A stretch of 64,000 nt of DNA from Myxococcales bacterium (lineage in GTDB: Bacteria > Myxococcota_A > Polyangia > Haliangiales > Haliangiaceae), in NCBI GenBank assembly GCA_016708565.1, contig JADJFN010000001.1, forward strand, positions 348,863 through 412,862. The letters run 5' to 3'. The notes under the pieces were generated by a model. The model made no database searches. It had not been told where the DNA came from and saw only the letters and a list, made by a program, of their open reading frames with translations. Positions 36,283 to 56,028 of this stretch are shown in pieces; position 1 is the stretch's first letter; every line of letters begins with the position of its first letter. The translations under genes were made by a program, and so were the position numbers.

Positions 36283-37202
36283 GGAGCACCTCCCAGCGTC
36301 GTGACGAAGCCGTCGGCGCCGAGCGCGCGCCACGCGGCCACCACCGCGTCGGCGCGGTCGGGGGCCAGCGCGATCACCGCGCCGCCGCCGCCGCCGCCGG
36401 TGAGCTTGGCCCCGAGCGCGCCGGCGCCGCGGGCGCCCGCGACCAGCGCGTCGAGCCGCGCGGTCGAGACGCCGAGCCCGGCGAGGTGGCGGTGGCCCTC
36501 GTCGAGCGCCGCGCCCAGCGCCGGCCAGCCGGCGGCGCCCGCGGCCAGCTGCCCGACCGCGGCGTCGGCCAGCGCGCCGAGCCGCGCCAGCGTCGCGTCG
36601 GTCGCGGCGGGCGCGGCGGCCCGGGCGTCGGCCACCCGCGCCACCATCGCCGCGGTCGAGCGCGGCTGCCCCGACAGGCCGATCACCAGCGGCAGCGGCG
36701 GCGCCGCGATCGCGGTCAGCCCGGCGCCGCGCACGAACCGGCCGAGCCCGCCGGCGCTGGCCAGCGCGGCGTCGAGGCCGCTGGGGTTGCCGTGGAAGCT
36801 GCGCTCGGCGCGGTTGGCCAGCTCGGCCACCGCGCCGTCGTCGAGGGCCAGCCCGCGCGCGCCGGCCAGCGCGCGGACGATCGCCACGCACAGCGCCGCC
36901 GACGAGCCCAGCCCGGCGCCGGCCGGCACGGTCGCGGTCGCGGTCACGAGGACGCCGTCGGCCACGCCCACGCCGTCGCCGATCGCCCGCAGCGCCGCGG
37001 CCACCGGGTGATCGTCGCCGGCGGTCACCGCCACCGCGAACGCGCCGGTCACGGTCAGCGCCAGCGGGCCGGGCCGCGCCGCGGCCACCGCTTCGACCCC
37101 GCGATCGATCGCGCCGGCCACCGCGGCGTGGCCGTACACCGCCGCGTGCTCGCCGAGCACGATCACCTTGCCGTGGCCGTGGCCGCGGGCGCCGGCGATC
37201 AC
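36279..37202 (-). CDS. mvk: Mevalonate kinase.
   Basis: GHGKVIVLGEHAAVYG (the MVK N-terminal motif), PAGAGLGSSAALCVAIV (GHMP ATP-binding) and KLTGGGGGGAVIAL. The GTG start at 37200-37202 overlaps the IDI-2 stop codon (GTGA). Confidence 0.75.
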   Translation of the reverse strand: MIAGARGHGHGKVIVLGEHAAVYGHAAVAGAIDRGVEAVAAARPGPLALTVTGAFAVAVTAGDDHPVAAALRAIGDGVGVADGVLVTATATVPAGAGLGSSAALCVAIVRALAGARGLALDDGAVAELANRAERSFHGNPSGLDAALASAGGLGRFVRGAGLTAIAAPPLPLVIGLSGQPRSTAAMVARVADARAAAPAATDATLARLGALADAAVGQLAAGAAGWPALGAALDEGHRHLAGLGVSTARLDALVAGARGAGALGAKLTGGGGGGAVIALAPDRADAVVAAWRALGADGFVTTLGGAP

Positions 37203-38287: not shown

Positions 38288-38340
38288 CGCCGGTTTCTAG
38301 CACGCTGCCGCCCCGCCGGCGGCCGGGCGCCGGCCGCGCG

Positions 38341-39222
38341 TCAATACACCATCAACAGCACCAGCGCGCCGAACGCCAGGCCGTTGAGCAAGAACAGCGG
38401 GTCGCGCAGCATCGCGTCGGTGGGGCTGTCCTCGCCGGCCTTGCGCAGCGCCAGGTCGGCGAAGCGCAGGATGCCGACGGCGCCGAGCGGCGCGGTCCAC
38501 ACCAGGTTGCGGGTGCCGAAGAAGCGGATGGTGTGCGCGTCGAGCGTGTACGCGACGTACGCGCCGATCGTCGCCAGCGCCAGCACGATCATCGACCACT
38601 GCACCGCCGTCGGGTGGTAGCCGGCCAGCGCCGCGCGGGTGGTGCCGACGTCGCGGCCGGCCAGCTTGGCGCGGGCCAGCTCGTGGGCGCGCTTGCCCAG
38701 CCCCAGGAACATCGCCAGCAGCCCGGTGCACGCCAGCAGCCACGGCGACGGCGCGACGCCGATGGCCGCGCCGCCGGCCATGACCCGCAGGATGAACCCG
38801 GCGGCGATCAAGATGACGTCGACGAACGCCACCTGCTTGAGCTTGAAGCTGTAGGCCAGGTTCTGCGCGAGGTACACGCCGGCCCACACCCCCGCCATCG
38901 GCGCCAGCGCGAACGCGGTGCCGAGGCCGGCCAGCGCCAGCACCGCCGCGACCACCAGCGCCGCGCGCTCGCCGAGGTGCCCCGCGGCGATCGGCCGCTT
39001 GCACTTGGTCGGGTGCGCGCGATCGGCGGCCACGTCGAGCACGTCGTTGAACGCGTAGACCGCGCCGGCCAGGGCGCAGAACGCCGCCACCGCCAGCGCG
39101 GCGCGCAGCGCGTAGTGCCCGTCCGCGAGGTGCTTGGCGAACACCAGCGGCGCGGCCACGAACACGTTCTTCACCCACTGGTGTGGGCGGAGCGTCTTGA
39201 GGACTGCGCGGGCCGGGCTCAT
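38341..39222 (-). CDS. UbiA-family prenyltransferase (decaprenyl-phosphate phosphoribosyltransferase-like).
   Basis: LKTLRPHQWVKNVFVAAPLVFA...FNDVLDVAADRAHPTKCKRPIAAG. It is polytopic and membrane-like. The start is taken as the ATG at 39220-39222. The ORF start at 39279 is the alternative. Confidence 0.7.
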   Translation of the reverse strand: MSPARAVLKTLRPHQWVKNVFVAAPLVFAKHLADGHYALRAALAVAAFCALAGAVYAFNDVLDVAADRAHPTKCKRPIAAGHLGERAALVVAAVLALAGLGTAFALAPMAGVWAGVYLAQNLAYSFKLKQVAFVDVILIAAGFILRVMAGGAAIGVAPSPWLLACTGLLAMFLGLGKRAHELARAKLAGRDVGTTRAALAGYHPTAVQWSMIVLALATIGAYVAYTLDAHTIRFFGTRNLVWTAPLGAVGILRFADLALRKAGEDSPTDAMLRDPLFLLNGLAFGALVLLMVY

Positions 39223-39291
39223 CGGCGAGCGCGCGGTGTTAGCACGGGGCTCGACGCGATGCCGAGTTCCCGGCGCCAACCGTGCGGTGGG

Positions 39292-41169
39292 CTACGGCGC
39301 GACCGCGGCAGAACCCGTGCCCGTCCCCGAACCCGAACCCGTCGCCGTGCCCGTCCCCGATCCCGTCCCCGATCCCGATCCCGTCCCCGATCCCGTCCCC
39401 GATCCCGATCCCGTCCCCGATCCCGATCCCGTCCCCGATCCCGTCCCCGATCCCGCGCCCACGCCGGCGTCGCCATCGTCGGCGGCCGGCGCGGCGTCCT
39501 CGGTGTCGGTGTCCTCGGTGTCGGTGTCCTCGGTGTCGGTGTCCTCGGTGTCCTCGTCCTCGTCGTCCTCGAAGTCGCCGCCGTCGTCGGCGCCGCCGTT
39601 GGCCTCGACCCAATCGGCGATCTTCGCCGTCTCGCAGGCCTTGGCCTCATCCGGCGCCTTCTTGCGGCAGTTGGTGACGTCGGTGAACAGGCCCAGGCAG
39701 TTCTCGCGCTCGAACTCGTCCTCGATGCCCTTGCACTCGTCCTGCTTCTTGACCGTGCCGTCGGGCAGGGTGACCTCGTCGACGTTGATCACCGCCTGGG
39801 CGCTGGACTTCACCACCGCCACCAGGCCGTCGAGGGTCCCGGTGGGCTTGGGCGGCGGCACCACGGTCAGGCTCGGCACGTAGGTCACGATCAACAGCGC
39901 CGCCATCACGGTGAACATGAATGGCAAGGTCGCGACCGTGACCTCCAGCAACGGTTTTCGAAACTTGAAGCTGGAGATGAACAGGTTGAGGCCGATCGGT
40001 GGGTGCAGGTAGCCGATCTCGAGGTTGAGCAAGAAGATCACGCCGAGGTGGTACGGGCTGACGTCGTACTCGTGGGCCACGGGCGCGATCAGCGGCACGA
40101 CGATCAAGATCGCCGAGAAGATGTCCATGACCATGCCGGTCAGGAGCAAGAGCCCGTTGAGCGCCAGCAGGAACGCCCACCGCGAGTCGATGTGGTCGCG
40201 GGTCCAGTGCACCAGCTTGGCGGGGACGCCCGCGGTCACCAGGTAGTTGGTCAGCGCGGTCGCCGAGTAGATGATGATGAAGATCGCGCCGATCAGCGCC
40301 ATCGACTCCTTGGTGATGGCCCACAGCGCCTGGGGCTTGAGGTCGCGGAAGATGCCCATCTCGACGATGATCAGGTACAGCACCGTCAGCGACGCGATCT
40401 GCGAGATGTCGCCGACGCCCTTGGCCAGGCCCAGCAAGATCAAGATCGGCAGGAAGATCACCGGCAGCGCGCCGGGCAGCGAGGCGAACAGCTCGCCCCA
40501 CTCGAACTTCTGGCGCGGCACCTTCTTGATGATCGCGATCGCCACCACCAGCGCCGACAGCATCAGGATCAGCAGCGCGCCCGGGATGATGCCGGCGAAG
40601 TAGAAGCGCTCGGTGGCCCACTCCCATTGCCAGTTCTCGGGCTTGGGCTGGATGCGCTGCAGGCCATAGATCGTGCCGAACAGGATGATCGGCAGGGCCG
40701 GCGGGAACAGCAGGCCGACCGAGCCGGTGCCGGTCACCAGGCCGAGCGCGAACCGCTCGGGGTACCGCTGCTTGATCAGCGCCGGCATCAACAGGCCGCC
40801 GAGCGCGACGATCGTGACGCCCGAGGCGCCGGTGAACGTGGTGTACACCGAGCACGCCAGGATCGTGACGATGCCGAGCCCGCCCGGCACCCAGCCCAGC
40901 GCGGCGTTGGCGAAGCGCACCAGCCGCTCGGCGGTCTTCGACGCGGCCATCACGTAGCCGGCGTAGATGAACAGCGGGATGCTCGAGAAGATCGTCGACT
41001 TGTCGCCGGTGCCGAGGCTGAAGAACTCGTAGGCGAAGCCGCCGAAGTCCTTCTCGAAGCCCTTGGTGCCGGTCTCGGCGCCGATCGCGGTCAAGAACAA
41101 CATCACCGCGAACAGCGGCGAGCCGGCGACGAACGCCAGCACCAGCAGGATGATCAGGAGCGTCAGCAT
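39292..41169 (-). CDS. dctM: TRAP transporter large permease (DctM family) with an unusual ~190-aa C-terminal tail. The tail is acidic, contains four Cys residues and ends in a (GSGT)n low-complexity stretch.
   Basis: A ~435-aa polytopic DctM-like core (LLMPALIKQRYPERFALGLVTGTGSVGLLFPPALPIILFG...). It is followed by ...DECKGIEDEFERENCLGLFTDVTNCRKKAPDEAKACETAKI...DDEDEDTEDTDTEDTDTEDTDTED...GSGTGSGTGSGSGTGSG. The whole region is one continuous frame. Confidence 0.8.
   Translation of the reverse strand: MLTLLIILLVLAFVAGSPLFAVMLFLTAIGAETGTKGFEKDFGGFAYEFFSLGTGDKSTIFSSIPLFIYAGYVMAASKTAERLVRFANAALGWVPGGLGIVTILACSVYTTFTGASGVTIVALGGLLMPALIKQRYPERFALGLVTGTGSVGLLFPPALPIILFGTIYGLQRIQPKPENWQWEWATERFYFAGIIPGALLILMLSALVVAIAIIKKVPRQKFEWGELFASLPGALPVIFLPILILLGLAKGVGDISQIASLTVLYLIIVEMGIFRDLKPQALWAITKESMALIGAIFIIIYSATALTNYLVTAGVPAKLVHWTRDHIDSRWAFLLALNGLLLLTGMVMDIFSAILIVVPLIAPVAHEYDVSPYHLGVIFLLNLEIGYLHPPIGLNLFISSFKFRKPLLEVTVATLPFMFTVMAALLIVTYVPSLTVVPPPKPTGTLDGLVAVVKSSAQAVINVDEVTLPDGTVKKQDECKGIEDEFERENCLGLFTDVTNCRKKAPDEAKACETAKIADWVEANGGADDGGDFEDDEDEDTEDTDTEDTDTEDTDTEDAAPAADDGDAGVGAGSGTGSGTGSGSGTGSGSGTGSGTGSGSGTGSGTGTATGSGSGTGTGSAAVAP
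39300..39560. repeat. Coding microsatellites inside the DctM tail: (cccgatcccgtc)n hexamer/dodecamer repeats and (ctcggtgtcggtgtc)x3.5.
   Basis: Read directly on the plus strand at 39303-39470 and 39478-39535. Confidence 0.6.
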
Positions 41170-41170
41170 G

Positions 41171-41863
41171 TCAGCCCGCCACTTCCGGCTCGGGCGCGGT
41201 CTTGCCCTGGCGCAGGTAGTCGATCTCGATGACGATGTGCAGGGTGACGTGGAACATGATCAGCACGGCGCACACCGGGATCAGCCAGCCCACGGTCGTG
41301 GTCGGGATGACCTCGTAGTGCTGCTTCTCCTTGGTCAAGGCGTGCTGGATGAGCCGACCGCCGTGGAACAAGAGCGCGCCGGCCAGCAGCGCGGCGACGT
41401 TGGTGAACACCCGCACCAGCGCCTTCACCTTGGTGGGGAACAGCGCCGAGACCAGGTCGAGGCCAAAGTTGCGCCGGCTCTGGGTGGCGTAGGCGGCGCC
41501 GAGCATGCCGATCGAGAACGCCGACAGGCGCACGATCTCGATCGCCCACAGCGGCCGTTCGCTGGCGAACATGTCGATGAACGTGCGGTACAAGCTGACC
41601 AGGACCAGCACGGCGAACGCGCCGAACAGCCCGGCGCGCTCGCCCGCGCCGACCGCCTCGTCGATCCGGCGCACCGCGCGCGCCAGCGGTGGCTCATCGG
41701 CGAAGTGATCGACCACGTGGGGCTCCGGGAACGCGACGGCCACGGCTACGCCCATCCCCGTCGCGGCAGGTGGTTCGGTCTTGAGGTGGACCTCGCCATC
41801 GGCCTTGGGGTCGGGCAGGTCGGGCGATGGCTTGACGGGTGGGTCATCACCGGATGCGCTCAC
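41171..41863 (-). CDS. dctQ: TRAP transporter small permease (DctQ family) with an N-terminal extension.
   Basis: It has four predicted TM helices and DctQ-like segments (FGAFAVLVLVSLYRTFIDMF...WAIEIVRLSAFSIGMLGAAYA). The gene ends 2 nt before the dctM start. Confidence 0.65.
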   Translation of the reverse strand: MSASGDDPPVKPSPDLPDPKADGEVHLKTEPPAATGMGVAVAVAFPEPHVVDHFADEPPLARAVRRIDEAVGAGERAGLFGAFAVLVLVSLYRTFIDMFASERPLWAIEIVRLSAFSIGMLGAAYATQSRRNFGLDLVSALFPTKVKALVRVFTNVAALLAGALLFHGGRLIQHALTKEKQHYEVIPTTTVGWLIPVCAVLIMFHVTLHIVIEIDYLRQGKTAPEPEVAG

Positions 41864-41994
41864 ACCAGCATCTTACGCAGGATCCGGAACCTGCCTCAAC
41901 CGATGCCGCCACCAAGTGCTCGTCCCGTCGGCCGCGTCGCGGCAGCCACCACGGTCGACTCGAGTGGAGGCGGCGTCTCGGCTACCCTCGCGCC

Positions 41995-42171
41995 ATGCCG
42001 ATCTGCCGCGAGTGCAAGGACGAAGTCGATCGCCTGGTCTCGGTCAAGGTCGCCGGCAAGGCCGTCAAGCTGTGCGCCGACTGCGCCGACCGCGCCCGCG
42101 AGGGCGCCGAGATCGCCGAGGCGAGCGAATCGGTGATCCAGGGCATGATGGGCTTCAAGGGCCGCCGCTAG
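41995..42171 (+). CDS. Small zinc-ribbon protein (58 aa, two CxxC pairs). It is on the strand opposite to the TRAP genes and lies between dctP and dctQ.
   Basis: MPICRECKDEVDRLVSVKVAGKAVKLCADCADRAREG... has high GC3. It is followed by a strong hairpin at 42203-42231. Confidence 0.4.
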   Translation: MPICRECKDEVDRLVSVKVAGKAVKLCADCADRAREGAEIAEASESVIQGMMGFKGRR

Positions 42172-42202
42172 CCACCAAGCGCGCGAGCACCGCCGCGCTA
42201 CC

Positions 42203-42231
42203 TCCGAAACGCAACCGCCCCGCACGAGGCG
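42203..42231 (+). terminator. Hairpin AACCGCCCCGC-acgag-GCGGGGCGGTT followed by GTT. It is part of a convergent terminator region that also includes hairpins at about 42277-42294 and 42312-42331.
   Basis: Perfect 11-bp stem, read directly. It lies between convergent gene ends. Confidence 0.4.
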
Positions 42232-42336
42232 GGGCGGTTGTTCCCTCAGACGGCCCCGCGCTGAACGCTCCGGGCCGTTTCGGGTGGGGGCCCCGGCGCA
42301 TGCCGGGGGAGGGTCTTACGAAAGACCCTCTCTAGG

Positions 42337-43359
42337 TCACGGCGCGGGGTTCTTCGCGCGGTACTCGTCGCGGTACTTCAGCACCATCTCGAGCTCGGCC
42401 TTCGAGTAGACCTTGCCGGTCAGATCGGCCCAGACGTCCTTGGCCGCCTTGTCGAAGTCGGCCAGGAGCTCCGGCGTGGTCGCGCTGATCTTCACGCCCT
42501 TGCGCTCCATCTGCTTCTTGGCGCTCTCGTTGTCCTTGCGGATCTGCTTGCGGAGCGTCTTCTGCATGCCCTTGGAGATCTTGAGCACCAGCTTCTGGTC
42601 CTCGGCCGTCACCTTCTTGTAGGCGTCCAGCTTGATGACCGTGGCGGCGATGCCGTAGCTCATCGGCATCGAGGTCATGTACTTGACCTTGGTGTTCCAC
42701 TGCAGCGCCACGGCGGCCAAGGGCGAGCCGTAGCACGCGTCGATGCGGCCGGTGGTCAGGTTGGGCTCGACCTCGGGCACGCCCAGCGGCACGCCCGAGA
42801 TGCCGAGCCGCTTGTACATGGCGCGGACGATCGCGTCGTCGCCCCACATCCACACCTTCGAGCTCTTGAGGTTGCCGACGCTGGTGATCTCGGACTTCGA
42901 GAGCAGGTAGATCCAGCCGACGTCGCCGCGATCGCCGAGCTTGTAGCCCTTGGCCTCGAACTTCTTGACGAAGTACGGCCACATCTTGTCGGCGACGTAG
43001 TCGAGCTCCTCGACCGTCGCGAACATGCGCGGCAGCTCGAGCACGCGGATCGACTCTTCGACCATCGACAGGCCGACCGAGGTCACGGCGGCGCCGTCGA
43101 GCTGGCCGAGGTTGATCTTGCGGACGACGTCGCGCTCGTCGCCCTGGACGCCGCCGGCGTAGTACTTGACCTTGACCCGGCCCTCGGTCTTCTTGTCGAT
43201 CTCGGCGGCGCCCTTGCCGAGGATCTTCATCCACGAGCTGCCGTCGGGCGCCAGGGTGGCCAGGCGGATCTCGACGTTGTCGGCCGCCGCCGGGGCGATC
43301 GCCGCGAGGGAAGCCGCGACGGCGGTCGCGAGGGTGAGACGGTTGACAAGGCTGCGCAT
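42337..43359 (-). CDS. dctP: TRAP transporter substrate-binding protein (DctP family).
   Basis: The signal peptide is MRSLVNRLTLATAVAASLAAIAPAAA. The body is a DctP-like periplasmic binding-protein sequence. A GGAG lies 8 nt upstream of the ATG. The ATG overlaps the stop codon of the tatT-like gene (TGATG). Confidence 0.8.
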   Translation of the reverse strand: MRSLVNRLTLATAVAASLAAIAPAAADNVEIRLATLAPDGSSWMKILGKGAAEIDKKTEGRVKVKYYAGGVQGDERDVVRKINLGQLDGAAVTSVGLSMVEESIRVLELPRMFATVEELDYVADKMWPYFVKKFEAKGYKLGDRGDVGWIYLLSKSEITSVGNLKSSKVWMWGDDAIVRAMYKRLGISGVPLGVPEVEPNLTTGRIDACYGSPLAAVALQWNTKVKYMTSMPMSYGIAATVIKLDAYKKVTAEDQKLVLKISKGMQKTLRKQIRKDNESAKKQMERKGVKISATTPELLADFDKAAKDVWADLTGKVYSKAELEMVLKYRDEYRAKNPAP

Positions 43360-44291
43360 CAGAAGAGCTCCTTTTCCTGGCTGAGGTACCGGCGGGCGCG
43401 CCGGTGGGCGATCTCGTTGGCGAGGCGCTGCTCCGGCCAGATCGCCGGATCGGTCTGCAGCACCTTGACCAGTTCGTCGTGGAACAGCGTGCGGTTCTGG
43501 GTCATGACGCCGACCCGCTTGGCGTAATTCACGCGGGCGAGCAGGAACTTGTCGTCGGTCAGCGCGAGGGCCTTCTTGAAGTGCTCCTCGGCCTTGGCCG
43601 CGTCGCCGCCCAGCTGGGCGCCGGCCGCGGTGTAGAGCAGGCCCAGCGCGACGTGGGGCAGGGCCGCCAGCGCCTTGTCCTTGGGCGGGTGCTTGTCGTC
43701 CATCTCGACGACCTTGAGCAGCATCGCCTTCGCGGTCGGCGCCTGCGCCACCAGCTCGACGTTGTCCTTGTTGTGGTTGATCATCGAGCCGAGGCCGATC
43801 GCCGCCCACATCAACGGGGTGCGCTGGCCGCTCGACGCGCCGTTGATCAGCTTGGTCACCGACTCGGTGTCGCCGAACAGGCCGTCCTGCCACTTCTTAC
43901 CGAGCTGCATCAGCGCGTAGTTCATGCAGCGCACGAACATCCGGGTCGCGCGGTTGTCGAGCTCCTGCGCCGCGTCGTAGTCGTTGGCGATCAGCGCGCG
44001 CTCCCACTCGTCCTCGACGAAGCCGATGCCGTACTGGCAGTAGCCCTCGGCGAGGATGCCGCGCAGGATCGGGTTGCCGGGATCGACCACCCAGAAGCCC
44101 TCGACGGTCTTGAGCGTGCCGGGGATGGCGCGCGCCGCCAGCTCGTAGTCGGACTCCATCTTGATCGACGGCTGGGCGCGGATCAGCACCTTCGCCGTGG
44201 TGTTGACGGTGAACTGGCCCATGTCGCACGCGGCGAGCACGAGCGTCGCCACGGCGGCGACGGCGAGAGCGAGGCGAGAGGTTCGGATCAT
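43359..44291 (-). CDS. TatT-like TPR lipoprotein (TRAP-associated T component family).
   Basis: A LAAC lipobox. A helical TPR-like protein of about 310 aa immediately upstream of dctP, matching the TPR-protein-associated TRAP transporter arrangement. Confidence 0.7.
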   Translation of the reverse strand: MIRTSRLALAVAAVATLVLAACDMGQFTVNTTAKVLIRAQPSIKMESDYELAARAIPGTLKTVEGFWVVDPGNPILRGILAEGYCQYGIGFVEDEWERALIANDYDAAQELDNRATRMFVRCMNYALMQLGKKWQDGLFGDTESVTKLINGASSGQRTPLMWAAIGLGSMINHNKDNVELVAQAPTAKAMLLKVVEMDDKHPPKDKALAALPHVALGLLYTAAGAQLGGDAAKAEEHFKKALALTDDKFLLARVNYAKRVGVMTQNRTLFHDELVKVLQTDPAIWPEQRLANEIAHRRARRYLSQEKELF

Positions 44292-44443
44292 GCGCGAGGT
44301 CCTGTGAGAGACGAGGGTTCGGCGTAGGGCATTCACGGCGGTGGCGGGATGAACCCGTCCGCTACCCCGGACGCGAAGGCTAAGTGAGCGAAAGGCGAGA
44401 GTCAATCACGGCGACGCGGTGGGCGACCGGGTACACTGGGCCG

Positions 44444-46054
44444 GTGACGCGCGCCTGGCTGGTCCTCGCCTGCGCCCTGGCCCTGGCGGCGGTCGGCTGC
44501 GACGCGTCGTGGCTGGGCGCCGCGCCGTCCGACCGCGGGCCGGGCGGGCTCAAGGCGGGCACGATCGTCGTGGCCCGCCCCGCCGACGCCAGCTCGCTCG
44601 ACCCGGCGCGCCCCAGCGACAACGAGTCGTCGGAGGTGATCTCGCAGCTCTACGACACGCTGGTGCGCTACCGCCCGGGCACCACCGAGATCGAGCCGGG
44701 CCTGGCGGTGGCGTGGGAGGTCGATCCCGCCGGGCGCTCGTGGACGTTCCGGCTGCGGCCGGGCGTGCGGTTCCACGACGGCACCGCGCTCGACGCGGCG
44801 GCCGTGGTGTTCAGCTTCGAGCGCCAGCGCGATCCCCAGCACCCGTACCACCGCGGCAAGTTCGCGTACTGGGAGAACGCGTTCAAGAACATCGAGCGGG
44901 TCGAGGCGATCGCGCCGATGATCGTGCGGATCACGATCAGCGATCGCTTCGCCCCGTTCCTGGCGGCGATGGCGACGTTCCCGGTGTCGATCGTGTCGCC
45001 GGCCGCGGTGGCCCGGTCCGGCGACGACTTCGGCGATCACCCGGTCGGGACCGGCGCGTACCGGCTGGAGCGCTGGACCCGCGGCGAGCGGATCGTCATC
45101 GTGCGCAACCCCGACTACTGGGGGCCGCGGCCGGCGATCGAGCGGGTGGTGTTCGAGGTCGTCCCCGACGCCCGGCAGCGGCTCATCGCGCTCGAGAGCG
45201 GCGCGGTCGATCTGGCGCTGGCGATCCTGCCCGCCGAGTCGCAGTTCCTCGATCTGCACCCGGGCCTGACGCTGCACCGGCCGCCGGCCAACAACGTCAC
45301 CTACCTGGCGATGAACTGCGCGCAGCCCCCGTTCGATCAGCCGGCGGTGCGGCAGGCGCTGGCCCTGGCGATCAACAAGCAGGCGATCGTCCGGCTGGCG
45401 TACCAGGGCCTGGCCACCGTCGCCGACGGCCCCCTGCCGCCGTCGCAGTGGGGGTACCGACCGGGGCTGGGCGCGGTGGGCTTCGATCCGGATGCGGCGC
45501 GGGCCCGGCTCGAGCGGCTGGCCGCCGAGGGCGCGATCGACCTGGGCCACACCTACAAGCTGTACGCGCCGACGACGCCGCGGCCGTACCTGCCCAACCC
45601 CGAGCAGGTCGCGCGGATCATCCGCGCCAACCTCGAGGAGGTCGGCCTGCACGTCGAGCTGGTGCTGCAGCCGTTCGCGGCGACGCGGCAAGACACCCAG
45701 GCCGGGCGCCACGACCTGGCGCTGGCCGGCTGGGTCGGCGACAACGGCGACCCCGACAACTACCTGTACCTGATGTTCGACAAGGACAACACGGTGCCCG
45801 GCATCGCCCGCAACATCGCGTTCTACCGCGACGACGCGGTGTCGACGCTGCTGCGCCGGGCCCAGCGGGTCGAGGACCGCGGCGAGCGCGAGCGGCTGTA
45901 CGCCGAGGCCCAGACCCGGATCGCGGCCGACGCGCCGTGGGTGCCGCTGGCCCACTCGCAGGTGACCGTGGCCGCGCGCGAGGACATCACCGGCGTGGTG
46001 GTCGATCCCACCGGCCACGTCGTGTACGCCGGGCTCAAGCGGGTCAAGCGGTGA
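44444..46054 (+). CDS. Solute-binding lipoprotein, family 5 (peptide/nickel/opine-type SBP, DppA/OppA-like).
   Basis: An AAVGC lipobox and a long family-5 SBP-like body (TIVVARPADASSLDPA...LVRY...). The start is taken as the GTG at 44444. Confidence 0.75.
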   Translation: MTRAWLVLACALALAAVGCDASWLGAAPSDRGPGGLKAGTIVVARPADASSLDPARPSDNESSEVISQLYDTLVRYRPGTTEIEPGLAVAWEVDPAGRSWTFRLRPGVRFHDGTALDAAAVVFSFERQRDPQHPYHRGKFAYWENAFKNIERVEAIAPMIVRITISDRFAPFLAAMATFPVSIVSPAAVARSGDDFGDHPVGTGAYRLERWTRGERIVIVRNPDYWGPRPAIERVVFEVVPDARQRLIALESGAVDLALAILPAESQFLDLHPGLTLHRPPANNVTYLAMNCAQPPFDQPAVRQALALAINKQAIVRLAYQGLATVADGPLPPSQWGYRPGLGAVGFDPDAARARLERLAAEGAIDLGHTYKLYAPTTPRPYLPNPEQVARIIRANLEEVGLHVELVLQPFAATRQDTQAGRHDLALAGWVGDNGDPDNYLYLMFDKDNTVPGIARNIAFYRDDAVSTLLRRAQRVEDRGERERLYAEAQTRIAADAPWVPLAHSQVTVAAREDITGVVVDPTGHVVYAGLKRVKR

Positions 46055-48837
46055 GCCGGCCGGGGCGGTGGCTGCGCGGGCTCGGCGCCGGCCTGGCCTG
46101 GCCGGCGCGGCGCATCGCGCGGGCGCGCCTGCGCACCAAGCTGGCGCTGGCGCTGACCGTCGCGGCGCTGCTGCCGATGCTGGTGGTGGCGTCCTTGGCC
46201 TCGGGCGTCGTGCTCGGCAGCCTCGATCGCGGCCTGCAGTCCGACGTGCAGCGCCAGCTCGACGTCGGGCTCAACCTGACCCTGCGCGCGGTCGAGCGGC
46301 TGGGCGAGGACGCCGTGCGGCTGGCCGCCAACCCCGAGCTGGCCGACTCGGTGCCGCGCGGCGCCGCCGCGATCCACGAGGTGGTGGCGCAGCGGGCGGC
46401 GTACCTGCCGTCGGCGCTGGTCCAGGTGCTGTCGCGCGACGGCCTGCCGCTCACCAGCGAGGTCATCGGCGGCGACGAGGCCCGGTTCTCGGAGCTGGCG
46501 GTCGACGGCAGCTCGGCGACGGTGGCGTCGGCGCGCGACTGGGCCCGGCGGGTGCAGCTCGAGCTGTCGCCCAAGGGCGTCGTGGTGCGGGCCTCGGCGC
46601 CGGTGCTCGACCGCCAGCTGTCGCTGGTCGGCGTGGTCGTGATCTCGGTGCCGCTCGACGGCGCGTTCGCCGACGGCATCAAGGGCGCGCTCGGCGTCGA
46701 CGTGCTGATCGGCAGCCTCAACGCCGGCGTGGCCACCTCGACGGTGCGCGACGCCGACGGCCGGCGGCTGTCGGCGCTGCAGGTGCCGACCCGGGTGCTG
46801 GCCCAGGTGCGCGAGCGCCGCCACCCGGTCGTGACCCAGGCCATCGCCGGCCGCGAGCACGCGGTGGCGTGGACCGCGCTCGAGGACGATCGCGGGCGCG
46901 CGGTCGGGCTGTTCGCGGTGGCGATCGATCGGCGGTCGCTGTCGCAGGCGCAGCGGGTGGCGTTCCGCTCGCTGGCCATCGGCGCGGCGGTGGCGGTGGC
47001 GTTCGCGTTCGTGCTGGCGGCGGCGCTGACCCGGCGCGTGGGCCGGCCGATCGCGACCCTGCACCGCGGCGCGATCGCGATCGCGCGCGGCGAGCTCGAT
47101 CAGGTGATCGACGTGCCGGCCGGCGACGAGATCGGCGACCTGGCCAAGGCCTTCACCCACATGACCGCGGCGCTCAAGGAGAACCAGCAGCGCCTGGCGG
47201 CGCGCATGCGCGAGATGGTGGCGATCCAGGACGCCGGCCGGGCGATGTCGTCGGTGATCGAGTTCGACCAGGTGTCGGCCAAGATCGTCGACGCGGTGGC
47301 CCGGGTGTTCGACGTGCGGCTGTGCGCGCTGTTCGCGGTGGCCGGCGGCGGCCGCGACGAGCCGCGGGTGACGGTGGCGGCGGCCCGGGTGCGCAAGGCC
47401 GAGCTGGCCAGCGCGCTGATCGGGGTCGACCCCGCCGACGCCGCGCCGCTGGCGCCGATCGCCGCGCAGGTGGCCCGGCTGCGCGCGACGTTGCGCGTCG
47501 ACGACGTGATCGCCGATCCCCGGCGCAAGGACGCGGCGCTGGCGGCCGGCGTCGACGGCTCGCTGCTGGCCATGCCGCTCGAGCGCAAGGGCGCGGTGGT
47601 GGGCGTGCTGGTGCTCGGCCGCACCCAGCGCAGCCGGACCTTCCTCGAGGCCGACGCCAACCTGCTGGCGACCTTCGCCGACCAGGCGGCGGCGGCGGTC
47701 GAGAACGCCCGGCTGTACGCGCAGGTCCGCGACGCCAGCGAGGAGCTCGAGGCCAAGGTGCGGCTGCGCACCGCCGAGCTGACGGCGATCAACGCCGAGC
47801 TGGGCCGCGCGCTGTCCGAGCTGCGCGACACCCAGGCCCAGCTGGTGCTGTCGGAGCGGATGGCCGGCCTCGGCCTCCTGGTGGCCGGCGTGGCCCACGA
47901 GATCAACTCGCCGTCGGCGGCGATCCGCGGCGCGGTCGAAGGGATGACCGCGGCGATCGGCCGGCTGGCGGTGCCCATGCACGAGCTGGCGGCGGCGGTG
48001 CCGACCGCGGCGGCCTTGTTCGCCACCGTCGAAGCGCACGCGCGCCGGCTGGCCGGCGAGCGCATGCCGACCGGCGCGGCGGTGCGGCGGGCCGCCAAGG
48101 AGCTGCGGGCCCGGCTGGTCGAGCTGGGCGCCGGGGCGGCGCCCGAGCTGGGCACCCGCCTGGCCGAGGCCGGGGCCGAGCTGGCCACCGTCGACGCGCT
48201 GGTGGCGGCGGTCCCGCCCGGCGCGGCCGGCGCGGTCCTGACCTACCTGGTCGAGCTGGCCGAGGTCCACCGGGCGTCGCTGCTGATCGCCAACGCGATC
48301 GTGCGCATCCAGCGCATCGTAGGTGCGCTCAAGACCTACTCGCACCTCGACCAGGAGCCGACCCGGGTCGCCGCCGACGTCCACGAGGGGATCGAGACCA
48401 CGCTCACCCTCATGGGGTACGCGCTGCGTGATATAACGGTGGTGAGGCGGTTCGCCGAGTTGCCCGCGGTGCCGATCTTTGTCGATGAGCTCAATCAGGT
48501 TTGGACGAACCTGATCCAGAACGCTGTCCAGGCGTGCGCGGGGAGAGGCACGATCACGATCGAGACCGTGGCCGCGGCGGCCACCGCCGCTGACCCCGCT
48601 GGGGTGGTGGTGCGGATCGTCGATGACGGGCCCGGCGTGCCGCCCGAGATCCTGCCGCGGATCTTCGAGCCGTTCTTCACCACCAAGCCCAAGGGCGAGG
48701 GCACCGGGCTGGGGCTGGGCATCGTCGCGCAGATCGTCGTCAAGCACGGCGGTCGGGTGGCGTGCGACTCGGTGCCCGGGCGCACCGCGTTCGAGGTGTG
48801 GCTGCCGACCGTGCGCCGCGGAGGCGCGACCGCGTGA
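46051..48837 (+). CDS. Sensor histidine kinase with a periplasmic sensor, HAMP and GAF domains and a HisKA-like (HisKA_3/7-type) plus HATPase core.
   Basis: There are two TM segments flanking a ~270-aa periplasmic region. The HAMP domain is IGDLAKAFTHMTAALKEN. A GAF-like region follows. The H-box is LVAGVAHEINSPSAAIRG. The ATP-lid has NLIQNAVQA and GTGLGLGIV. The GTG start overlaps the SBP stop codon (GTGA). Confidence 0.8.
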   Translation: MSRPGRWLRGLGAGLAWPARRIARARLRTKLALALTVAALLPMLVVASLASGVVLGSLDRGLQSDVQRQLDVGLNLTLRAVERLGEDAVRLAANPELADSVPRGAAAIHEVVAQRAAYLPSALVQVLSRDGLPLTSEVIGGDEARFSELAVDGSSATVASARDWARRVQLELSPKGVVVRASAPVLDRQLSLVGVVVISVPLDGAFADGIKGALGVDVLIGSLNAGVATSTVRDADGRRLSALQVPTRVLAQVRERRHPVVTQAIAGREHAVAWTALEDDRGRAVGLFAVAIDRRSLSQAQRVAFRSLAIGAAVAVAFAFVLAAALTRRVGRPIATLHRGAIAIARGELDQVIDVPAGDEIGDLAKAFTHMTAALKENQQRLAARMREMVAIQDAGRAMSSVIEFDQVSAKIVDAVARVFDVRLCALFAVAGGGRDEPRVTVAAARVRKAELASALIGVDPADAAPLAPIAAQVARLRATLRVDDVIADPRRKDAALAAGVDGSLLAMPLERKGAVVGVLVLGRTQRSRTFLEADANLLATFADQAAAAVENARLYAQVRDASEELEAKVRLRTAELTAINAELGRALSELRDTQAQLVLSERMAGLGLLVAGVAHEINSPSAAIRGAVEGMTAAIGRLAVPMHELAAAVPTAAALFATVEAHARRLAGERMPTGAAVRRAAKELRARLVELGAGAAPELGTRLAEAGAELATVDALVAAVPPGAAGAVLTYLVELAEVHRASLLIANAIVRIQRIVGALKTYSHLDQEPTRVAADVHEGIETTLTLMGYALRDITVVRRFAELPAVPIFVDELNQVWTNLIQNAVQACAGRGTITIETVAAAATAADPAGVVVRIVDDGPGVPPEILPRIFEPFFTTKPKGEGTGLGLGIVAQIVVKHGGRVACDSVPGRTAFEVWLPTVRRGGATA

Positions 48838-49898
48838 GCCTGCGCGAGACCATCCTGTGCGTCGACGACGAGGAGGGCGTGCTCCACGCGCTGCGCCAGC
48901 AGCTCGCGGCCCGCTTCGGCCACGAGTGCGACATCGCGACCGCGTCGTCGGGCGCCGACGCGCTCGAGCTGCTCGACGAGCTGGAGCGCGACGGCGAGAA
49001 GATCGCGGTGGTGATCGCCGATCAGATCATGCCGGGCATGAAGGGCGTCGACCTGCTCGAGCTGGTCGATCGCCGCAGCCCGTCGACCACCAAGATCCTG
49101 CTGACCGGGCAGGCCGGCCTCGACGCGGTGGTCAGCGCGATCAACCGCGCCAACCTCAACCACTACCTGTCCAAGCCGTGGGACGAGGCGTCCTTGCGGC
49201 TGGCCGTCGAGAACCTGCTGCGGCAGTACCGCCTGACCGCCGAGAACCGCGAGCTGATCGCGACCTTGTCGGCCAAGAACCAGGCGCTGCTCGAGATGAA
49301 CCGCGAGCTCGAGGCCAGGATCCACGAGCGCACCCACGAGCTGGCCGAGGCCAACGCCCGGCTGGCGCAGCTGGCGGTCACCGACGGCTTGACCGGGCTG
49401 TACAACCACCGCCACTTCCACGAGCGGCTGGCGCTCGAGGTCGAGCGCTCGGCGCGCAACGGCCTGCCGCTGTCGTTGTTGATGATCGACGTCGATCACT
49501 TCAAGCACTACAACGACCACCACGGCCACCCGTCGGGCGACGAGGTGCTGCGGCAGATCGCCCGGCTGCTCGCCGAGGGCCGGCGCGCCAACGACCTGGT
49601 CGCGCGCTACGGCGGCGAGGAGTTCGGCGTGGTGCTGGTCGACACCGCCAAGTTCACCGCCGCCAAGCTGGCCGAGCGGGTGCGCGAGCGGGTGGTCGGG
49701 TTCGGCTTCGCCCACAAGGAGGCGCAGCCGCTGGGCCGGGTCACGATCTCGATCGGCGTGGCGTCGTTCCCCGACGACGCCGGCGACGCGATGGCGCTGG
49801 TGCGGTCGGCCGACGACGCGCTGTACGCGGCCAAGCGCGCCGGCCGCGATCGGGTGGTGCTCGCCACCGCCAACCCCGGCGAGCCAGCCAGCGGCTGA
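48834..49898 (+). CDS. Response regulator receiver plus GGDEF diguanylate cyclase (catalytic motif intact).
   Basis: The receiver is ILCVDDEEGVL...VIADQIMPGMKG...KP. The GGDEF domain has RYGGEEFGVVL and the I-site-like RLALEVERS...D. The GTG start overlaps the kinase stop codon (GTGA). Confidence 0.85.
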   Translation: MSLRETILCVDDEEGVLHALRQQLAARFGHECDIATASSGADALELLDELERDGEKIAVVIADQIMPGMKGVDLLELVDRRSPSTTKILLTGQAGLDAVVSAINRANLNHYLSKPWDEASLRLAVENLLRQYRLTAENRELIATLSAKNQALLEMNRELEARIHERTHELAEANARLAQLAVTDGLTGLYNHRHFHERLALEVERSARNGLPLSLLMIDVDHFKHYNDHHGHPSGDEVLRQIARLLAEGRRANDLVARYGGEEFGVVLVDTAKFTAAKLAERVRERVVGFGFAHKEAQPLGRVTISIGVASFPDDAGDAMALVRSADDALYAAKRAGRDRVVLATANPGEPASG

Positions 49899-49963
49899 GC
49901 CACGGCGCCCTACCCGAAGCGAGATCCCACGGGCAGATCCGAGTTGCGGTAGGTTCACCGGCG

Positions 49964-50992
49964 ATGACCACCGCCCCCGCGCGCTCGCCCAAGGACGTCG
50001 CCGTGATCGGCGCCGGCAGCTACGGCACCTGCCTGGCCATCCTCGCCGCGTCGGCGGGGCACCGGGTCCACTTCTGGTGCCGCGGCGAGGCGGCCGCCGC
50101 CGAGCTGCAGGCGACCCGCGAGAACAAGCTCTACCTGCCGGGGTTCCGGCTGCCCGACGGCGTGACCGTCACCGCCGACCTCGAGGCCGCGGTGCGCGGC
50201 AAGCAGATCGTCGTCGGGGTGACGCCGTCGCACGCGATCCGCGACGTGCTCGGCCGGGCGGCGGCGTGGCTCGATCCCGACGTGGTGGTGGTCAACGCGT
50301 CCAAGGGGCTCGAGGACGGCACGCTGCAGACCATCGAGCAGGTCTACGCCGACATCTTCCCGGCGCGGATCGCGGGGCGCGCGACCTACCTGTCGGGGCC
50401 GACCTTCGCCGCCGAGATCGCCGGCGGCATGCCGTCGGCGATCGTGCTGGCCGGCCACGACCCCGAGACCACCGCGATGGTGCAGCGCGCGCTGTCGACC
50501 GATCGCTTCCGCACCTACTCGACCGACGACGTCACCGGCGTGCTGGTCGGCGGCGCGATCAAGAACGTCGTCGCGATCGCCGCCGGCGTGTCCGACGGCC
50601 TCGGCTTCGGCTCCAACGCCCGCGCGGCGCTGATCACCCGCGGCCTGGCCGAGATCACCCGCATCGGCGTGGCGATGGGCGCCGACCCGGTGACCTTCGC
50701 CGGCCTGTCGGGCATGGGCGATCTGGTGCTGACCTGCTCGAGCGACACCTCGCGCAACCGCAAGGTCGGCCTGGCGCTGGGCCGCGGCCAGGCGATGGCC
50801 GACATCCTCGCCGACATGCGCATGGTCGCCGAGGGCGTGAAGACGACGAAGGTGGCGTGGGACCTGGCGCGCAAGCTGGGCGTGCCGGCGCCGATCACCG
50901 AGGTGATGCACGCGATCGTCCACGAGGGCGCGCCGGCCCGCGAGACGATGCAGCGCCTGATGGCGCGCTCGCTGCGCAGCGAGAAGGACTGA
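49964..50992 (+). CDS. gpsA: NAD(P)H-dependent glycerol-3-phosphate dehydrogenase.
   Basis: VAVIGAGSYGTCLA (the Rossmann fold), NASKGLE and GAIKNVVAIAAG are typical of GpsA. Confidence 0.85.
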   Translation: MTTAPARSPKDVAVIGAGSYGTCLAILAASAGHRVHFWCRGEAAAAELQATRENKLYLPGFRLPDGVTVTADLEAAVRGKQIVVGVTPSHAIRDVLGRAAAWLDPDVVVVNASKGLEDGTLQTIEQVYADIFPARIAGRATYLSGPTFAAEIAGGMPSAIVLAGHDPETTAMVQRALSTDRFRTYSTDDVTGVLVGGAIKNVVAIAAGVSDGLGFGSNARAALITRGLAEITRIGVAMGADPVTFAGLSGMGDLVLTCSSDTSRNRKVGLALGRGQAMADILADMRMVAEGVKTTKVAWDLARKLGVPAPITEVMHAIVHEGAPARETMQRLMARSLRSEKD

Positions 50993-51000
50993 GCGACGTC

Positions 51001-51822
51001 TCAGAGCGCGCCACGGACGGTGAGCCCGACGGTGGTCGGCGACAGGCTGGGGACCACCGCCACCTCGGCCGCGCCGCGGCCGCGGCGATCGACCGCGAAC
51101 AGGATCACGCCGCCGACCACCAGCGCGCCGCCGGCGGCCCAGCCGACGATGGCGAGGGTCTCGGCGCGGCGGCCCTGGTCCTGCTTGGCCAGCGCGGCGT
51201 CGGTCCACGGGCCCTCATGGGCGGACAGCTCGTCGGATAGCGACCGCGCCTGCAACCCGAAATACACGCCGGCGCCGACGCCGGCGAGGCCGCCGACGGT
51301 CAACGCCAGCGCGGTGGGCCGGCGCCAGCCACCACCGGCGTGGGCGCGCGGCGCGGGCGGCGGCGCGGGGTCCGGCGGCGGCGCCAGGGTCGGCCCGGGC
51401 TCGACCACCGGCGGCGGCTCGGCGACCGGCGGCGGCTCGGCGACCGGCGGCGGCTCGGCCTCGACCGGCCGGGGCTTGCCGGCGGTGGCCTTCTTCAGCT
51501 TGGCCAGGTGCTGCCGCGCCGACGCGGCGAACTGCCCCTTGGGCTCGACGGCGAGGTAGCGCTGGTACTGCTCGATCGCGTCCCACGGCTGATCGGCCAG
51601 CCGGTACGCCTGCCCGAGGTTGTAGAGCAGCGCCGGGTGCGGGATCAGGTCGTAGGCCTCGCGCAGCTTGGCGATCGCGGTCGGGTAGTCGCTGGCGGCC
51701 TGCGCCGCCGACGCGGCGTCGACCAGCGCCGCGGCCTTGGCCTTGCGATCGGCGGCGTCGTCCGCGGCGGCGGTGCCGACGAGCGCCCCCAGCGCGAGCG
51801 CGCTCGCGAGCACGAACCTCAT
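51001..51822 (-). CDS. TPR-repeat protein with a signal peptide, a proline-rich (PPPVAEP)n repeat and a C-terminal TM segment.
   Basis: MRFVLASALALGALVGTAAA is a signal peptide. There are TPR-like repeats. PPPVAEPPPVAEPPPVVEP is encoded by nucleotide tandem repeats at about 51400-51470. Confidence 0.55.
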   Translation of the reverse strand: MRFVLASALALGALVGTAAADDAADRKAKAAALVDAASAAQAASDYPTAIAKLREAYDLIPHPALLYNLGQAYRLADQPWDAIEQYQRYLAVEPKGQFAASARQHLAKLKKATAGKPRPVEAEPPPVAEPPPVAEPPPVVEPGPTLAPPPDPAPPPAPRAHAGGGWRRPTALALTVGGLAGVGAGVYFGLQARSLSDELSAHEGPWTDAALAKQDQGRRAETLAIVGWAAGGALVVGGVILFAVDRRGRGAAEVAVVPSLSPTTVGLTVRGAL

Positions 51823-54690: not shown

Positions 54691-56028
54691 ATGGGACGCG
54701 CGACCGCGCTGGCGGTGATCGCACTGGGCGTCGGGGCCGCGCCGGCCGCGGCGAGCCCGGTCGAGCTGTTCGGCTTCGGCAGCCGCCACGGCGCCCACGC
54801 CGGCGCCGGCGTCGCCGACGTCGACGACATGGCCGCGACCTGGATGAACCCGGCCGGGCTGGCCGCCGGTCGCAAGACGCTGACCACCGGCATGCTCGGC
54901 TGGGTGTCGAACCTGCGCGTCGGCGAGCGCCGCAGCCCGATGGCGCAGACCGGCGGCGGGCTGTTCGGCGTGACCTTGCCGGCGCCGCTGGGCGGGCCGC
55001 TGGCCGGGCGGCTGGGGCTGGGGCTCGGCATGTTCGTGCTGCCGACGTCGATCGTGCGCATCACCGCGCGCCTGCCCGACGAGCCGTTCTTCCCCTACTA
55101 CCAGGGCCGCGCCGAGCGGCTGGTGCTGGTGCCCGGCGTCGGCGTGCGGGTCACCGACGCGCTCGACGTCGGCGTCGCCGCCAACTTCCTGGCCGGGCTG
55201 GGCGGCGGCATCGAGGCCGGCGAGGGCGCGACCCGCGCGCTCGAGGCCCGCGTCGACGAGGTGGTGCCGGCGGTGGCGCGGCTGGTGGCCGGCGCGCGCT
55301 GGCGGGTGCGGCCCGACCTGGCGATCGCCGCGGTCTACCGGCAGCGCTTCGAGGTGCCGTTCACCACCGTCGCGCGCACCGAGGTCGCGGGCGAGCCGAT
55401 CAACCTCGACCTGGCCGCCAGCGGGCAGTTCGCGCCGCACACCGCGGTGCTCGGCGCGACCTGGAAGCCGCCGGGCGGCGCGCTGCACCTCGATCTGGCC
55501 TACGCGCGGTGGTCGAGCTACCCGGGGCCGTTCGTCAAGGTCGGCAGCGAGCTGCCGCTGGTCGGCCCGCTCGCCGCCGAGCTGCCGGCGGTGCCGTGGC
55601 GCGACACCGTCGCGGTGCGGCTGGGCGGCGACGTCGCGATCGGCGAGCGCGTGCTGGGCCGCGCCGGCTACGCGTTCGAGACCTCGCCGGTGCCGGCGGC
55701 GCAGCCCGGCGTCACCAACCTGCTCGACGGACCGCGCCACACCGTGGCGCTCGGCGCGGCGATCACCTGGCCGGCGGCGCTGGCCGGCAAGCCGGTGACC
55801 CTGGCGCTGCACGCGCAGGCGCAGCTGGTCGGCGGGCGCACGCTGACCAAGGCGATCCTGCCGGCCGGCGCGGCCGGCGGCACCTTCGACGGCCTGCGCG
55901 ACGAGGTCACCGACGATCCGCAGGACCCGGCGACCCAGGGCGCGCAGATCTCCAACCCCGGCTACCCGCGGCTCGACAGCGGCGGCCAGGTGTTCTCGGG
56001 CGGCGCGACGTTGGAGGTGGGGCTGTGA
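54691..56028 (+). CDS. Outer-membrane beta-barrel-like protein (FadL/OmpP1-like candidate), paralog 1.
   Basis: A signal peptide, alternating amphipathic strands, and aromatic/Gly-rich segments typical of outer-membrane barrels. It ends with a short terminal sequence. Confidence 0.55.
   Translation: MGRATALAVIALGVGAAPAAASPVELFGFGSRHGAHAGAGVADVDDMAATWMNPAGLAAGRKTLTTGMLGWVSNLRVGERRSPMAQTGGGLFGVTLPAPLGGPLAGRLGLGLGMFVLPTSIVRITARLPDEPFFPYYQGRAERLVLVPGVGVRVTDALDVGVAANFLAGLGGGIEAGEGATRALEARVDEVVPAVARLVAGARWRVRPDLAIAAVYRQRFEVPFTTVARTEVAGEPINLDLAASGQFAPHTAVLGATWKPPGGALHLDLAYARWSSYPGPFVKVGSELPLVGPLAAELPAVPWRDTVAVRLGGDVAIGERVLGRAGYAFETSPVPAAQPGVTNLLDGPRHTVALGAAITWPAALAGKPVTLALHAQAQLVGGRTLTKAILPAGAAGGTFDGLRDEVTDDPQDPATQGAQISNPGYPRLDSGGQVFSGGATLEVGL

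Follow-up and report, generated by a model that had tools for sequence, protein, structure and literature searches.

What does a substrate-binding protein (SBP) of family 5 do when its gene is joined to those of a sensor kinase and a nucleotide cyclase, and no transporter genes follow it? The question is raised by a three-gene cassette (44444-49898, plus strand) in a 64,000-nucleotide stretch of contig JADJFN010000001.1 from a Myxococcales bacterium, which as a whole we call the window. The window has a G+C content of ~75%, and its closest public match is a Myxococcales/Kofleriaceae metagenome-assembled genome (MAG; locus L001, SBP 96% identical). The cassette encodes, all in one direction, an SBP_bac_5 protein, a histidine kinase (HK) and a REC-GGDEF diguanylate cyclase (DGC), and the three reading frames are backed by codon-position GC (GC3) analysis and by translation. 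Both of the GTGA stop/start overlaps by which an initial annotation had seen the genes joined can be read from the sequence, at 46051-46054 (SBP-HK) and at 48834-48837 (HK-DGC). That annotation had also proposed that the SBP serves as a co-sensor for the periplasmic domain of the kinase, with output to cyclic di-GMP (c-di-GMP) synthesis, and this proposal gains strong comparative support from gene order, from the absence of ATP-binding cassette (ABC) genes, from an exclusive clade of binding proteins and from one natural gene fusion. We place the probability that the cassette is an SBP-dependent two-component system with c-di-GMP output at roughly 70%; the SBP would most likely act as the ligand-catching half of the sensor and not as a nutrient-uptake protein. 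The cassette is described nowhere in the literature that we searched.

Gene order, missing transporter genes and a natural fusion

In metagenomes the SBP has 903 relatives at E<=1e-10, and the best 120 of these 903 are all at least 52% identical to it. Among species-representative genomes, the 11 best SBP loci (L001-L011) all belong to Myxococcales/Kofleriaceae MAGs and hold the order SBP-HK-DGC up to the end of each contig, with L011 ending inside the SBP gene and showing TatT and the SBP only. Five long contigs, including ones of 3.4 Mb and 3.0 Mb and a TARA marine scaffold, carry the series SBP_bac_5, dCache_3-HAMP-GAF-HATPase, REC-GGDEF and gpsA. A reciprocal metagenome search, using the N-terminal 400 residues of the kinase as query and counting as testable those loci with enough flanking DNA, showed the HK gene to be immediately preceded by that of an SBP ortholog (44-100% identity) in 47 of 47 loci and immediately followed by that of a DGC ortholog (59-99% identical) in 34 of 34, one of the latter being flagged solely through a shorter kinase. 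DppB and DppC were found in no locus of this search. What marks an SBP-dependent sensor kinase, an SBP gene tied to a signalling gene and not to a transporter, is thereby seen in all 47 metagenomic loci and in all testable genome loci.

The gene junctions are also retained. A 4-nt overlap of SBP stop and HK start occurs in 52 of 67 unique related loci, and 48 of 52 share an overlap of HK stop and DGC start, of either 4 nt or 1 nt. Identity of the HK periplasmic domain goes down to 29% in the most distant loci, which also lack the upstream TatT operon, and it follows that the conserved unit is SBP-HK-DGC (with gpsA) rather than the wider block. On this comparative evidence, the cassette arrangement is more than chance.

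The initial annotation had noted that no ABC permease or ATPase genes come after the SBP, and this proved true of the entire window. Searches by tblastn (E<=1e-3) with DppB, DppC, DppD and DppF of the Escherichia coli K-12 dpp operon returned nothing in the 64 kb, and Pfam found no ABC domains in the other 40 called window genes, that is, in all except an open reading frame of 92 amino acids at 21740-22015. It was likewise borne out in orthologous loci: by tblastn, none of more than 60 has an ABC gene within ~10 kb of the SBP, or a DppB or DppC, as against DppB-DppC right after the nearest non-orthologous SBPs. As a control, the same DppB and DppC queries do find their targets beside these outgroup SBPs.

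The strongest support for the co-sensor reading comes from Ser/Thr kinases that bear the same double-Cache (dCache) sensor domain as the HK, with an SBP_5 either adjacent or fused. Three of the 121 representatives of the sensor domain are Hanks-type Ser/Thr kinases in which the dCache follows a single transmembrane (TM) helix. Two of these (P0278 and P0304; Pkinase-TM-dCache) have a separate SBP_bac_5 gene directly downstream, in one case with a 4-nt overlap and in the other across a 45-nt gap, and no ABC genes are found near either locus. The third (P0316; L171, 1536-4823) is a single Pkinase-TM-dCache-SBP_5 chain, in which the last dCache strand is followed by ~12 residues and then by the SBP_bac_5 domain, the junction having neither a signal peptide nor a second TM helix. 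Against the window proteins, the dCache of P0316 shows 29% identity to the HK over residues 33-292 (E 6e-15), and its SBP domain 44% identity to the SBP over residues 40-518 (E 8e-126). By the Rosetta-stone argument this fusion suggests that SBP and dCache function physically as a pair in the periplasm, and a binding domain fused to its sensor could hardly be a shuttle for an importer. Hanks-type kinases with this dCache and an SBP_5 would be an SBP-dependent Ser/Thr kinase family. Further away, the sensor homolog P0135 (dCache_3-HAMP-HD-GYP, 29% identity) has no SBP nearby, indicating that the link to an SBP is confined to the closer sensor family, and P0255, located at a contig edge, carries an sCache_3_2-HAMP sensor on the same kinase core.

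The binding proteins also hold together phylogenetically. All 62 HK-linked sequences, and no others, group in one clade of a neighbour-joining tree of 133 unique SBPs. The SBP of the P0316 fusion nests within this clade, and once it is included 30 of 30 bootstrap replicates recover the clade as exclusive. The SBP is therefore not a member of a transport-only clade, the outcome that had been named beforehand as telling against a co-sensor. The nearest outgroup SBPs are 30-40% identical (Firmicutes, Chloroflexota, Kangiellaceae), and most have DppB-DppC immediately downstream; outgroup orphans (L015-L018) sit in unrelated contexts (CTP synthase, glycosyltransferases, redoxin, NfeD) with no signalling gene adjacent. 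A triad from a soil metagenome (L165, 3874-9347) suggests that pairing of SBP_5 proteins with Cache kinases recurs more widely: an NtrC-type regulator (REC, sigma-54 AAA+, HTH_8) stands with an SBP_bac_5 gene and an sCache_3_2-HAMP-PAS-HisKA kinase gene, with 1 nt from SBP stop to kinase start, and the SBP is 28% identical to that of the window.

Binding protein, kinase and cyclase

The SBP matches PF00496 (SBP_bac_5) with 318.4 bits (cutoff 32.4, E 8e-95) over profile positions 1-365 of 368, the domain occupying residues 82-449. Its best matches by sequence among solved structures are AibA (6OFQ, 1.8e-85) and E. coli DppA (1DPP, 4.8e-79), the next best being glutathione- and nickel-binding proteins, and opine binders score far lower. 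Of the peptide/opine-type family-5 protein originally annotated, the family thus stands, with a DppA-like character, and the opine likeness falls away. Identity to E. coli DppA is 34% (tblastn). The score against the NCBIfam DppA equivalog model (NF043070) is 258.7 bits, short of the cutoff of 1005, and the SBP is therefore not a DppA ortholog; it also lies far under the cutoffs of the SapA, GsiB, NikA and OppA models.

The start codon is ambiguous (GTG 44444 or GTG 44384), and the mature protein is the same either way. A short signal sequence carries a lipobox-like AVGC with Cys19 (44498-44500) and Asp at +2; an equivalent Cys is present in 88 of 121 SBP orthologs, 68 of these 88 with Asp at +2. 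The SBP is accordingly graded a probable lipoprotein, as had been annotated, its basis being the lipobox-like motif. In E. coli, Asp at +2 is the rule for retention in the inner membrane, and myxobacterial sorting rules may differ. Judging from Cys19 and the following Asp, the protein is probably tethered to the inner membrane.

As regards the ligand, the equivalents of DppA Arg355, Tyr357 and Asp408 in the SBP are Arg380 (45581-45583), Tyr382 and Asp433 (45740-45742), and these positions, together with the equivalent of Trp405, show no variation among the 121 SBP orthologs. Eight positions of the SBP are both invariant and specific to its clade. In DppA (1DPP), Arg355 is one of the dipeptide-clamping residues. 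Asp408 forms a salt bridge to the N-terminus of the bound dipeptide (PMC3295651). The conserved clamp residues point, as a best guess, to a small molecule whose alpha-amino group and carboxylate are both free and as far apart as in a dipeptide; the simplest candidate is a dipeptide or another short peptide.

The kinase was annotated as a HAMP-GAF histidine kinase and the cyclase as REC-GGDEF with an intact GGEEF, and Pfam domains and motifs agree on both. From the N terminus, the HK consists of TM1 (~30-58), the dCache (~59-304), TM2 (~305-328), HAMP (326-376) and GAF (405-551), followed by the dimerisation and histidine phosphotransfer (DHp) helix 1 (581-649), an insert (~653-719), DHp helix 2 (726-764) and the catalytic and ATP-binding (CA) domain (~773-920). 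Hydropathy and an AlphaFold2 (AF2) model put the periplasmic stretch at ~245 residues, shorter than the ~270 first estimated. Pfam gives a weak sCache_3_3 match in this stretch (residues 205-300, 26.1 bits, cutoff 28.8), and HK orthologs have precomputed dCache_3 or Cache_3-Cache_2 matches. The AF2 model of residues 1-400, with a predicted local distance difference test (pLDDT) score of 84.6 overall and >90 in the periplasmic part, has a long helix continuing TM1, two alpha/beta PDC modules (~95-201 and 204-293), TM2 and HAMP, and as a prediction it confirms the dCache fold. Foldseek matches the modelled sensor to many solved dCache domains with probability 1.00, including TlpA, Mlp37, PctA and DctB, and also to the LuxQ periplasmic domain 2HJE (TM 0.65, root-mean-square deviation 5.4). 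An exhaustive profile-free search of 1.84e9 cluster representatives returned 121 homologs of the periplasmic domain, and the HK sensor is thus a small, lineage-restricted family.

In the cytoplasm, the H, N, G1 and G2 boxes (His616 in AHEINSP, NLIQN at 820, DDGPG at 858 and GEGTG at 882) and the modelled DHp-CA fold identify a HisKA-type histidine kinase, with a Pfam HATPase_c match at residues 812-920 (87 bits). The AF2 model of the core (pLDDT 91.6) is a normal DHp-CA unit apart from a four-helix insert of ~67-75 residues at the tip of the DHp hairpin, where it separates helix 1, which bears the His, from helix 2. This insert is kept in 42 aligned HK homologs. Foldseek hits to ZraS, HK853 and WalK/YycG, which are without the insert, cover only the canonical ~235 residues (TMq ~0.39), and the insert also explains why the Pfam HisKA profile matches helix 1 only and stays under its cutoff (17.3 bits against 26.9).

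The DGC comprises Response_reg (residues 7-125, 66.8 bits) and GGDEF (181-340, 163.9 bits) domains in Pfam. Intact phospho-acceptor Asp63 (49020-49022), an RxxD I-site, RAND, at residues 251-254 (49584-49595) and GGEEF at 260-264 (49611-49625) predict a PleD/WspR-like REC-GGDEF diguanylate cyclase; the NCBIfam PleD equivalog model scores 208 bits and its cutoff of 474 is not reached. Since this response regulator contains no DNA-binding domain, a two-component system that merely regulates an adjacent uptake gene does not apply here. Orthology to Myxococcus xanthus DmxB was considered and rejected: DmxB is of another size, lies in another locus and can dispense with phosphorylation.

A possible signalling route and its competitors

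We propose the following route from ligand to c-di-GMP. The tethered periplasmic SBP would capture a small ligand, most simply a di- or short peptide, and dock on the dCache domain of the HK, where ligand-induced closure of the SBP could alter the contact. From there the signal would reach the DHp/CA core by way of TM2 and HAMP, with the cytoplasmic GAF domain as a possible second input. These steps draw on comparative genomics and on analogy with the CBP-ChiS, LuxPQ and NspS-MbaA systems. Autophosphorylation at His616 and transfer of the phosphate to Asp63 should follow, upon which the phosphorylated REC-GGDEF protein should dimerise and synthesise c-di-GMP in a GGEEF-dependent manner, the RxxD I-site providing product inhibition; here the intact motifs and the behaviour of PleD and WspR are our guide. 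In this scheme we infer the SBP-kinase contact, the ligand class, the membrane anchoring, the direction of regulation and the specificity of phosphotransfer.

It is also conceivable that the SBP is dual-functional, serving a Dpp/Opp-type ABC importer encoded elsewhere while signalling to the adjacent HK. Among DppA paralogs, orphans that feed a shared permease are common, other phyla have orphan DppA-like SBPs with no permease gene next to them, and the peptide-clamping residues of the cassette SBP are fully kept. Both DppA-Tap and CBP-ChiS, moreover, are precedents with two functions (PMC8050422). We nevertheless consider this unlikely, as no ABC gene lies within ~10 kb in the orthologous loci or anywhere in the window, the SBP clade has no ABC-linked member, and the ~12-residue linker of the P0316 fusion is hard to square with docking on a permease. 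More improbable still is that the dCache binds the signal itself, leaving the SBP an accessory role, such as buffering, scavenging or presenting the ligand, or repressing the HK, in which it is not the element that recognises the ligand. Most characterised dCache domains do bind small ligands directly, the top fold matches (TlpA, Mlp37, PctA and DctB) come from this group, and several polar residues of the sensor domain are conserved across 70 sequences. However, no part of the cassette evolves faster than the sensor domain: mean pairwise distances are 1.10 for this domain, 0.74 for the SBP, 0.68 for the cytoplasmic part of the HK and 0.38 for the DGC. The pocket residues of the SBP, in contrast, are invariant; and the strict pairing of SBP and dCache with two types of output kinase, together with the fusion, suggests that the pair is the functional unit. 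That the genes are coincidental neighbours, an ordinary orphan transport protein having kept its place through inherited gene order in one lineage, is scarcely credible. Gene order is generally stable here, insofar as the wider block of mevalonate genes, UbiA, TatT-TRAP and gpsA is also syntenic in many loci, but loci with other flanks (L089, L084 and the TatT-less distant subclade) still have the SBP-HK-DGC core, its stop/start overlaps are conserved, and the SBP/dCache pairing recurs in another gene order with another kinase type and, once, as a fusion.

Several points weigh against an SBP co-sensor and temper our estimate. The loci counted are related to one another, and their genes were assigned by tblastn and not by curated annotation. 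A mirror-tree analysis of 25 unique loci plus the window gave no specific signal of co-evolution between SBP and sensor domain: the partial correlation of the SBP with the HK periplasmic domain, given the HK cytoplasmic part, is 0.27 as against 0.38 for the reverse control, and the raw correlations of all four proteins are 0.82-0.95 through shared phylogeny. The equivalent of Arg355 is Ser or Thr in 8 of the 62 members of the wider HK-linked SBP clade, so that the ligand may differ among subclades. The P0316 fusion is known from one metagenome contig of 8.7 kb, Ga0501233_000209 of JGI 3300049668. The dCache fold matches direct binders as well as LuxQ and for this reason cannot separate direct from SBP-mediated sensing. 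Finally, a DppBCDF importer encoded elsewhere in the genome could also use the SBP, our scans having covered the 64-kb window and the orthologous loci.

Beyond the cassette itself, we tentatively suggest, at somewhat less than even odds, that the whole monophyletic DppA-like clade has left transport and become an obligate, detachable ligand-binding subunit of one dCache domain, portable to HK-DGC systems and to Hanks-type Ser/Thr kinases, and once fused.

Surroundings, known counterparts and significance

The features of the locus are listed below. On the 3' side the cassette is followed by gpsA, a TPR protein gene and a Ser/Thr kinase gene. The gpsA gene starts 68 nt past the DGC stop on the same strand, no terminator-like site was found in the gap by consensus scan, and 19 of 25 testable loci likewise have gpsA next to the DGC gene in the same orientation; it may be co-transcribed with the cassette. 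The consensus scan of 44200-51100 showed no promoter-like sites and one terminator-like site inside the DGC gene, at chance level, and Rfam at gathering thresholds gave no match in the whole window.

Features of the cassette and its immediate neighbours (window coordinates)
Feature	Position	Strand	Basis
DppA-like family-5 SBP, probable lipoprotein, 536 aa	44444..46054	+	Pfam PF00496
Sensor HK, 928 aa, GTG start overlapping SBP stop	46051..48837	+	Pfam, motifs, hydropathy, AF2
Periplasmic double-Cache (double PDC) domain of HK, proposed SBP docking partner	46225..46962	+	AF2, Foldseek
Four-helix DHp insert of HK	48007..48207	+	AF2
REC-GGDEF response regulator/diguanylate cyclase, 354 aa, GTG start overlapping HK stop	48834..49898	+	Pfam, motifs
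gpsA, NAD(P)H-dependent glycerol-3-phosphate dehydrogenase	49967..50992	+	Pfam
TatT-DctP-DctQ-DctM operon (tripartite ATP-independent periplasmic (TRAP) transporter with TPR protein), divergent from cassette	39292..44291	-	Pfam, synteny

On the other side, the TRAP operon stands beside the cassette in the closer subclade and is absent from the more distant one. Beyond it lie UbiA, a flavin mononucleotide (FMN)-dependent IDI-2-like gene, mevalonate-pathway genes and a squalene/phytoene synthase gene. The whole minus-strand block (32113-44291) comprises squalene/phytoene synthase, HMG-CoA reductase, three GHMP-type mevalonate genes, the IDI-2-like gene, UbiA and DctM-DctQ-DctP-TatT. Several distant loci (L082, L083 and L085) keep the mevalonate-to-TatT portion of this block beside the cassette, which may point to some connection of isoprenoid metabolism with the TatT-TRAP system. 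DctM (39292-41169) is 625 amino acids long, with the DctM profile covering residues 3-433 and ~190 C-terminal residues outside it; its orthologs in L082 and L085 have 614 and 623 residues.

Elsewhere in the window there is a second c-di-GMP operon (23936-30919, plus strand) that encodes HDOD and FIST-domain proteins, a soluble hybrid kinase (HisKA-HATPase-REC-Hpt) and a REC-PAS-GGDEF-EAL protein. Three consecutive plus-strand genes (6285-15339; 1140, 1122 and 765 amino acids) carry ClpB-like AAA+ modules (AAA_2 and ClpB D2-small), a tandem triplet that is unusual. Two adjacent paralogs at 54691-57305 (plus strand) have weak FadL/TodX-type matches of 30.9 and 23.9 bits (Pfam cutoff 29.7) and are followed by the gene of an unannotated 483-amino-acid protein. 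Alpha-2-macroglobulin-like genes (MG2, Big_5, A2M bait region and A2M) occupy two adjacent open reading frames on the minus strand at the window edge (3-4774).

The closest known systems are CBP-ChiS and LuxPQ, with CBP-ChiS the nearest, as it has both the SBP family and a dCache-like sensor in common with the cassette. In Vibrio cholerae CBP-ChiS, an SBP_bac_5 protein regulates a membrane HK with a dCache-like periplasmic domain, and the two genes are adjacent (PMC8050422 Table 1; PMC12704726), which is the arrangement also seen here. CBP, however, heads a (GlcNAc)2 ABC-transport operon and takes part in transport as well as signalling, whereas the cassette has no ABC genes; and ChiS is a one-component DNA-binding hybrid kinase, whereas the cassette HK is a non-hybrid HAMP-GAF kinase with a DHp insert and a separate REC-GGDEF output. 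Unlike CBP, the cassette SBP is DppA-like, has peptide-clamping residues and is probably lipidated. With LuxP-LuxQ (Vibrio harveyi/V. cholerae) the cassette shares a dedicated, transporter-independent SBP, a double-PAS/PDC kinase domain and adjacent genes, SBP-kinase binding being known for LuxPQ and proposed for the cassette. The differences are that LuxP belongs to Peripla_BP_4 and binds autoinducer 2 (AI-2), the cassette SBP being of family 5, and that LuxQ is a hybrid kinase with a phosphorelay to LuxO, where the cassette HK would address a diguanylate cyclase.

For the output, NspS-MbaA of V. cholerae and ScrB-ScrC of Vibrio parahaemolyticus are precedents in which an SBP controls c-di-GMP turnover via a dCache-like membrane protein encoded by an adjacent gene (PMC8050422 Table 1). 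There the direct target of the SBP is a membrane-bound GGDEF-EAL enzyme, whereas the cassette interposes an HK and a phosphorylatable REC-GGDEF protein, and NspS is of the SBP_bac_8 family, not SBP_bac_5. E. coli DppA and Helicobacter pylori AibA are the closest in sequence, and the clamp of Asp408, Arg355 and Tyr357 is common to DppA and the cassette SBP; yet DppA and AibA signal to the chemoreceptors Tap and TlpB, not to kinases, and are encoded with or used by DppBCDF importers. The cyclase resembles WspR and PleD in its receiver with phospho-acceptor Asp, helical linker, GGEEF and RxxD I-site. WspR, however, is fed by the chemosensory CheA, and PleD has two receiver domains, while the cassette DGC has one and is, as we propose, fed by the HK.

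The SBP-dependent sensor kinases characterised to date number only about a dozen, and the mode by which the SBP switches them varies from system to system (PMC12704726); the organisms listed with SBP-stimulated receptors include no delta-proteobacteria or Myxococcota (PMC8050422). Against this background the cassette offers a clean case, in which a member of the best-understood peptide-binding family, with an intact clamp and no transporter nearby meets a well-modelled dCache domain and an easily measured output, c-di-GMP. Natural variants exist as well, with the same SBP/dCache pair on a Ser/Thr kinase or fused, and if our reading is correct the P0316 fusion could open the SBP/dCache interface to structural work. 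Current ideas are not overturned; the value lies in a new, widespread and experimentally tractable example. In myxobacteria c-di-GMP governs motility, matrix production and development, and the cassette, if it works as proposed, would provide a nutrient (peptide) input to c-di-GMP control in Kofleriaceae-type myxobacteria.

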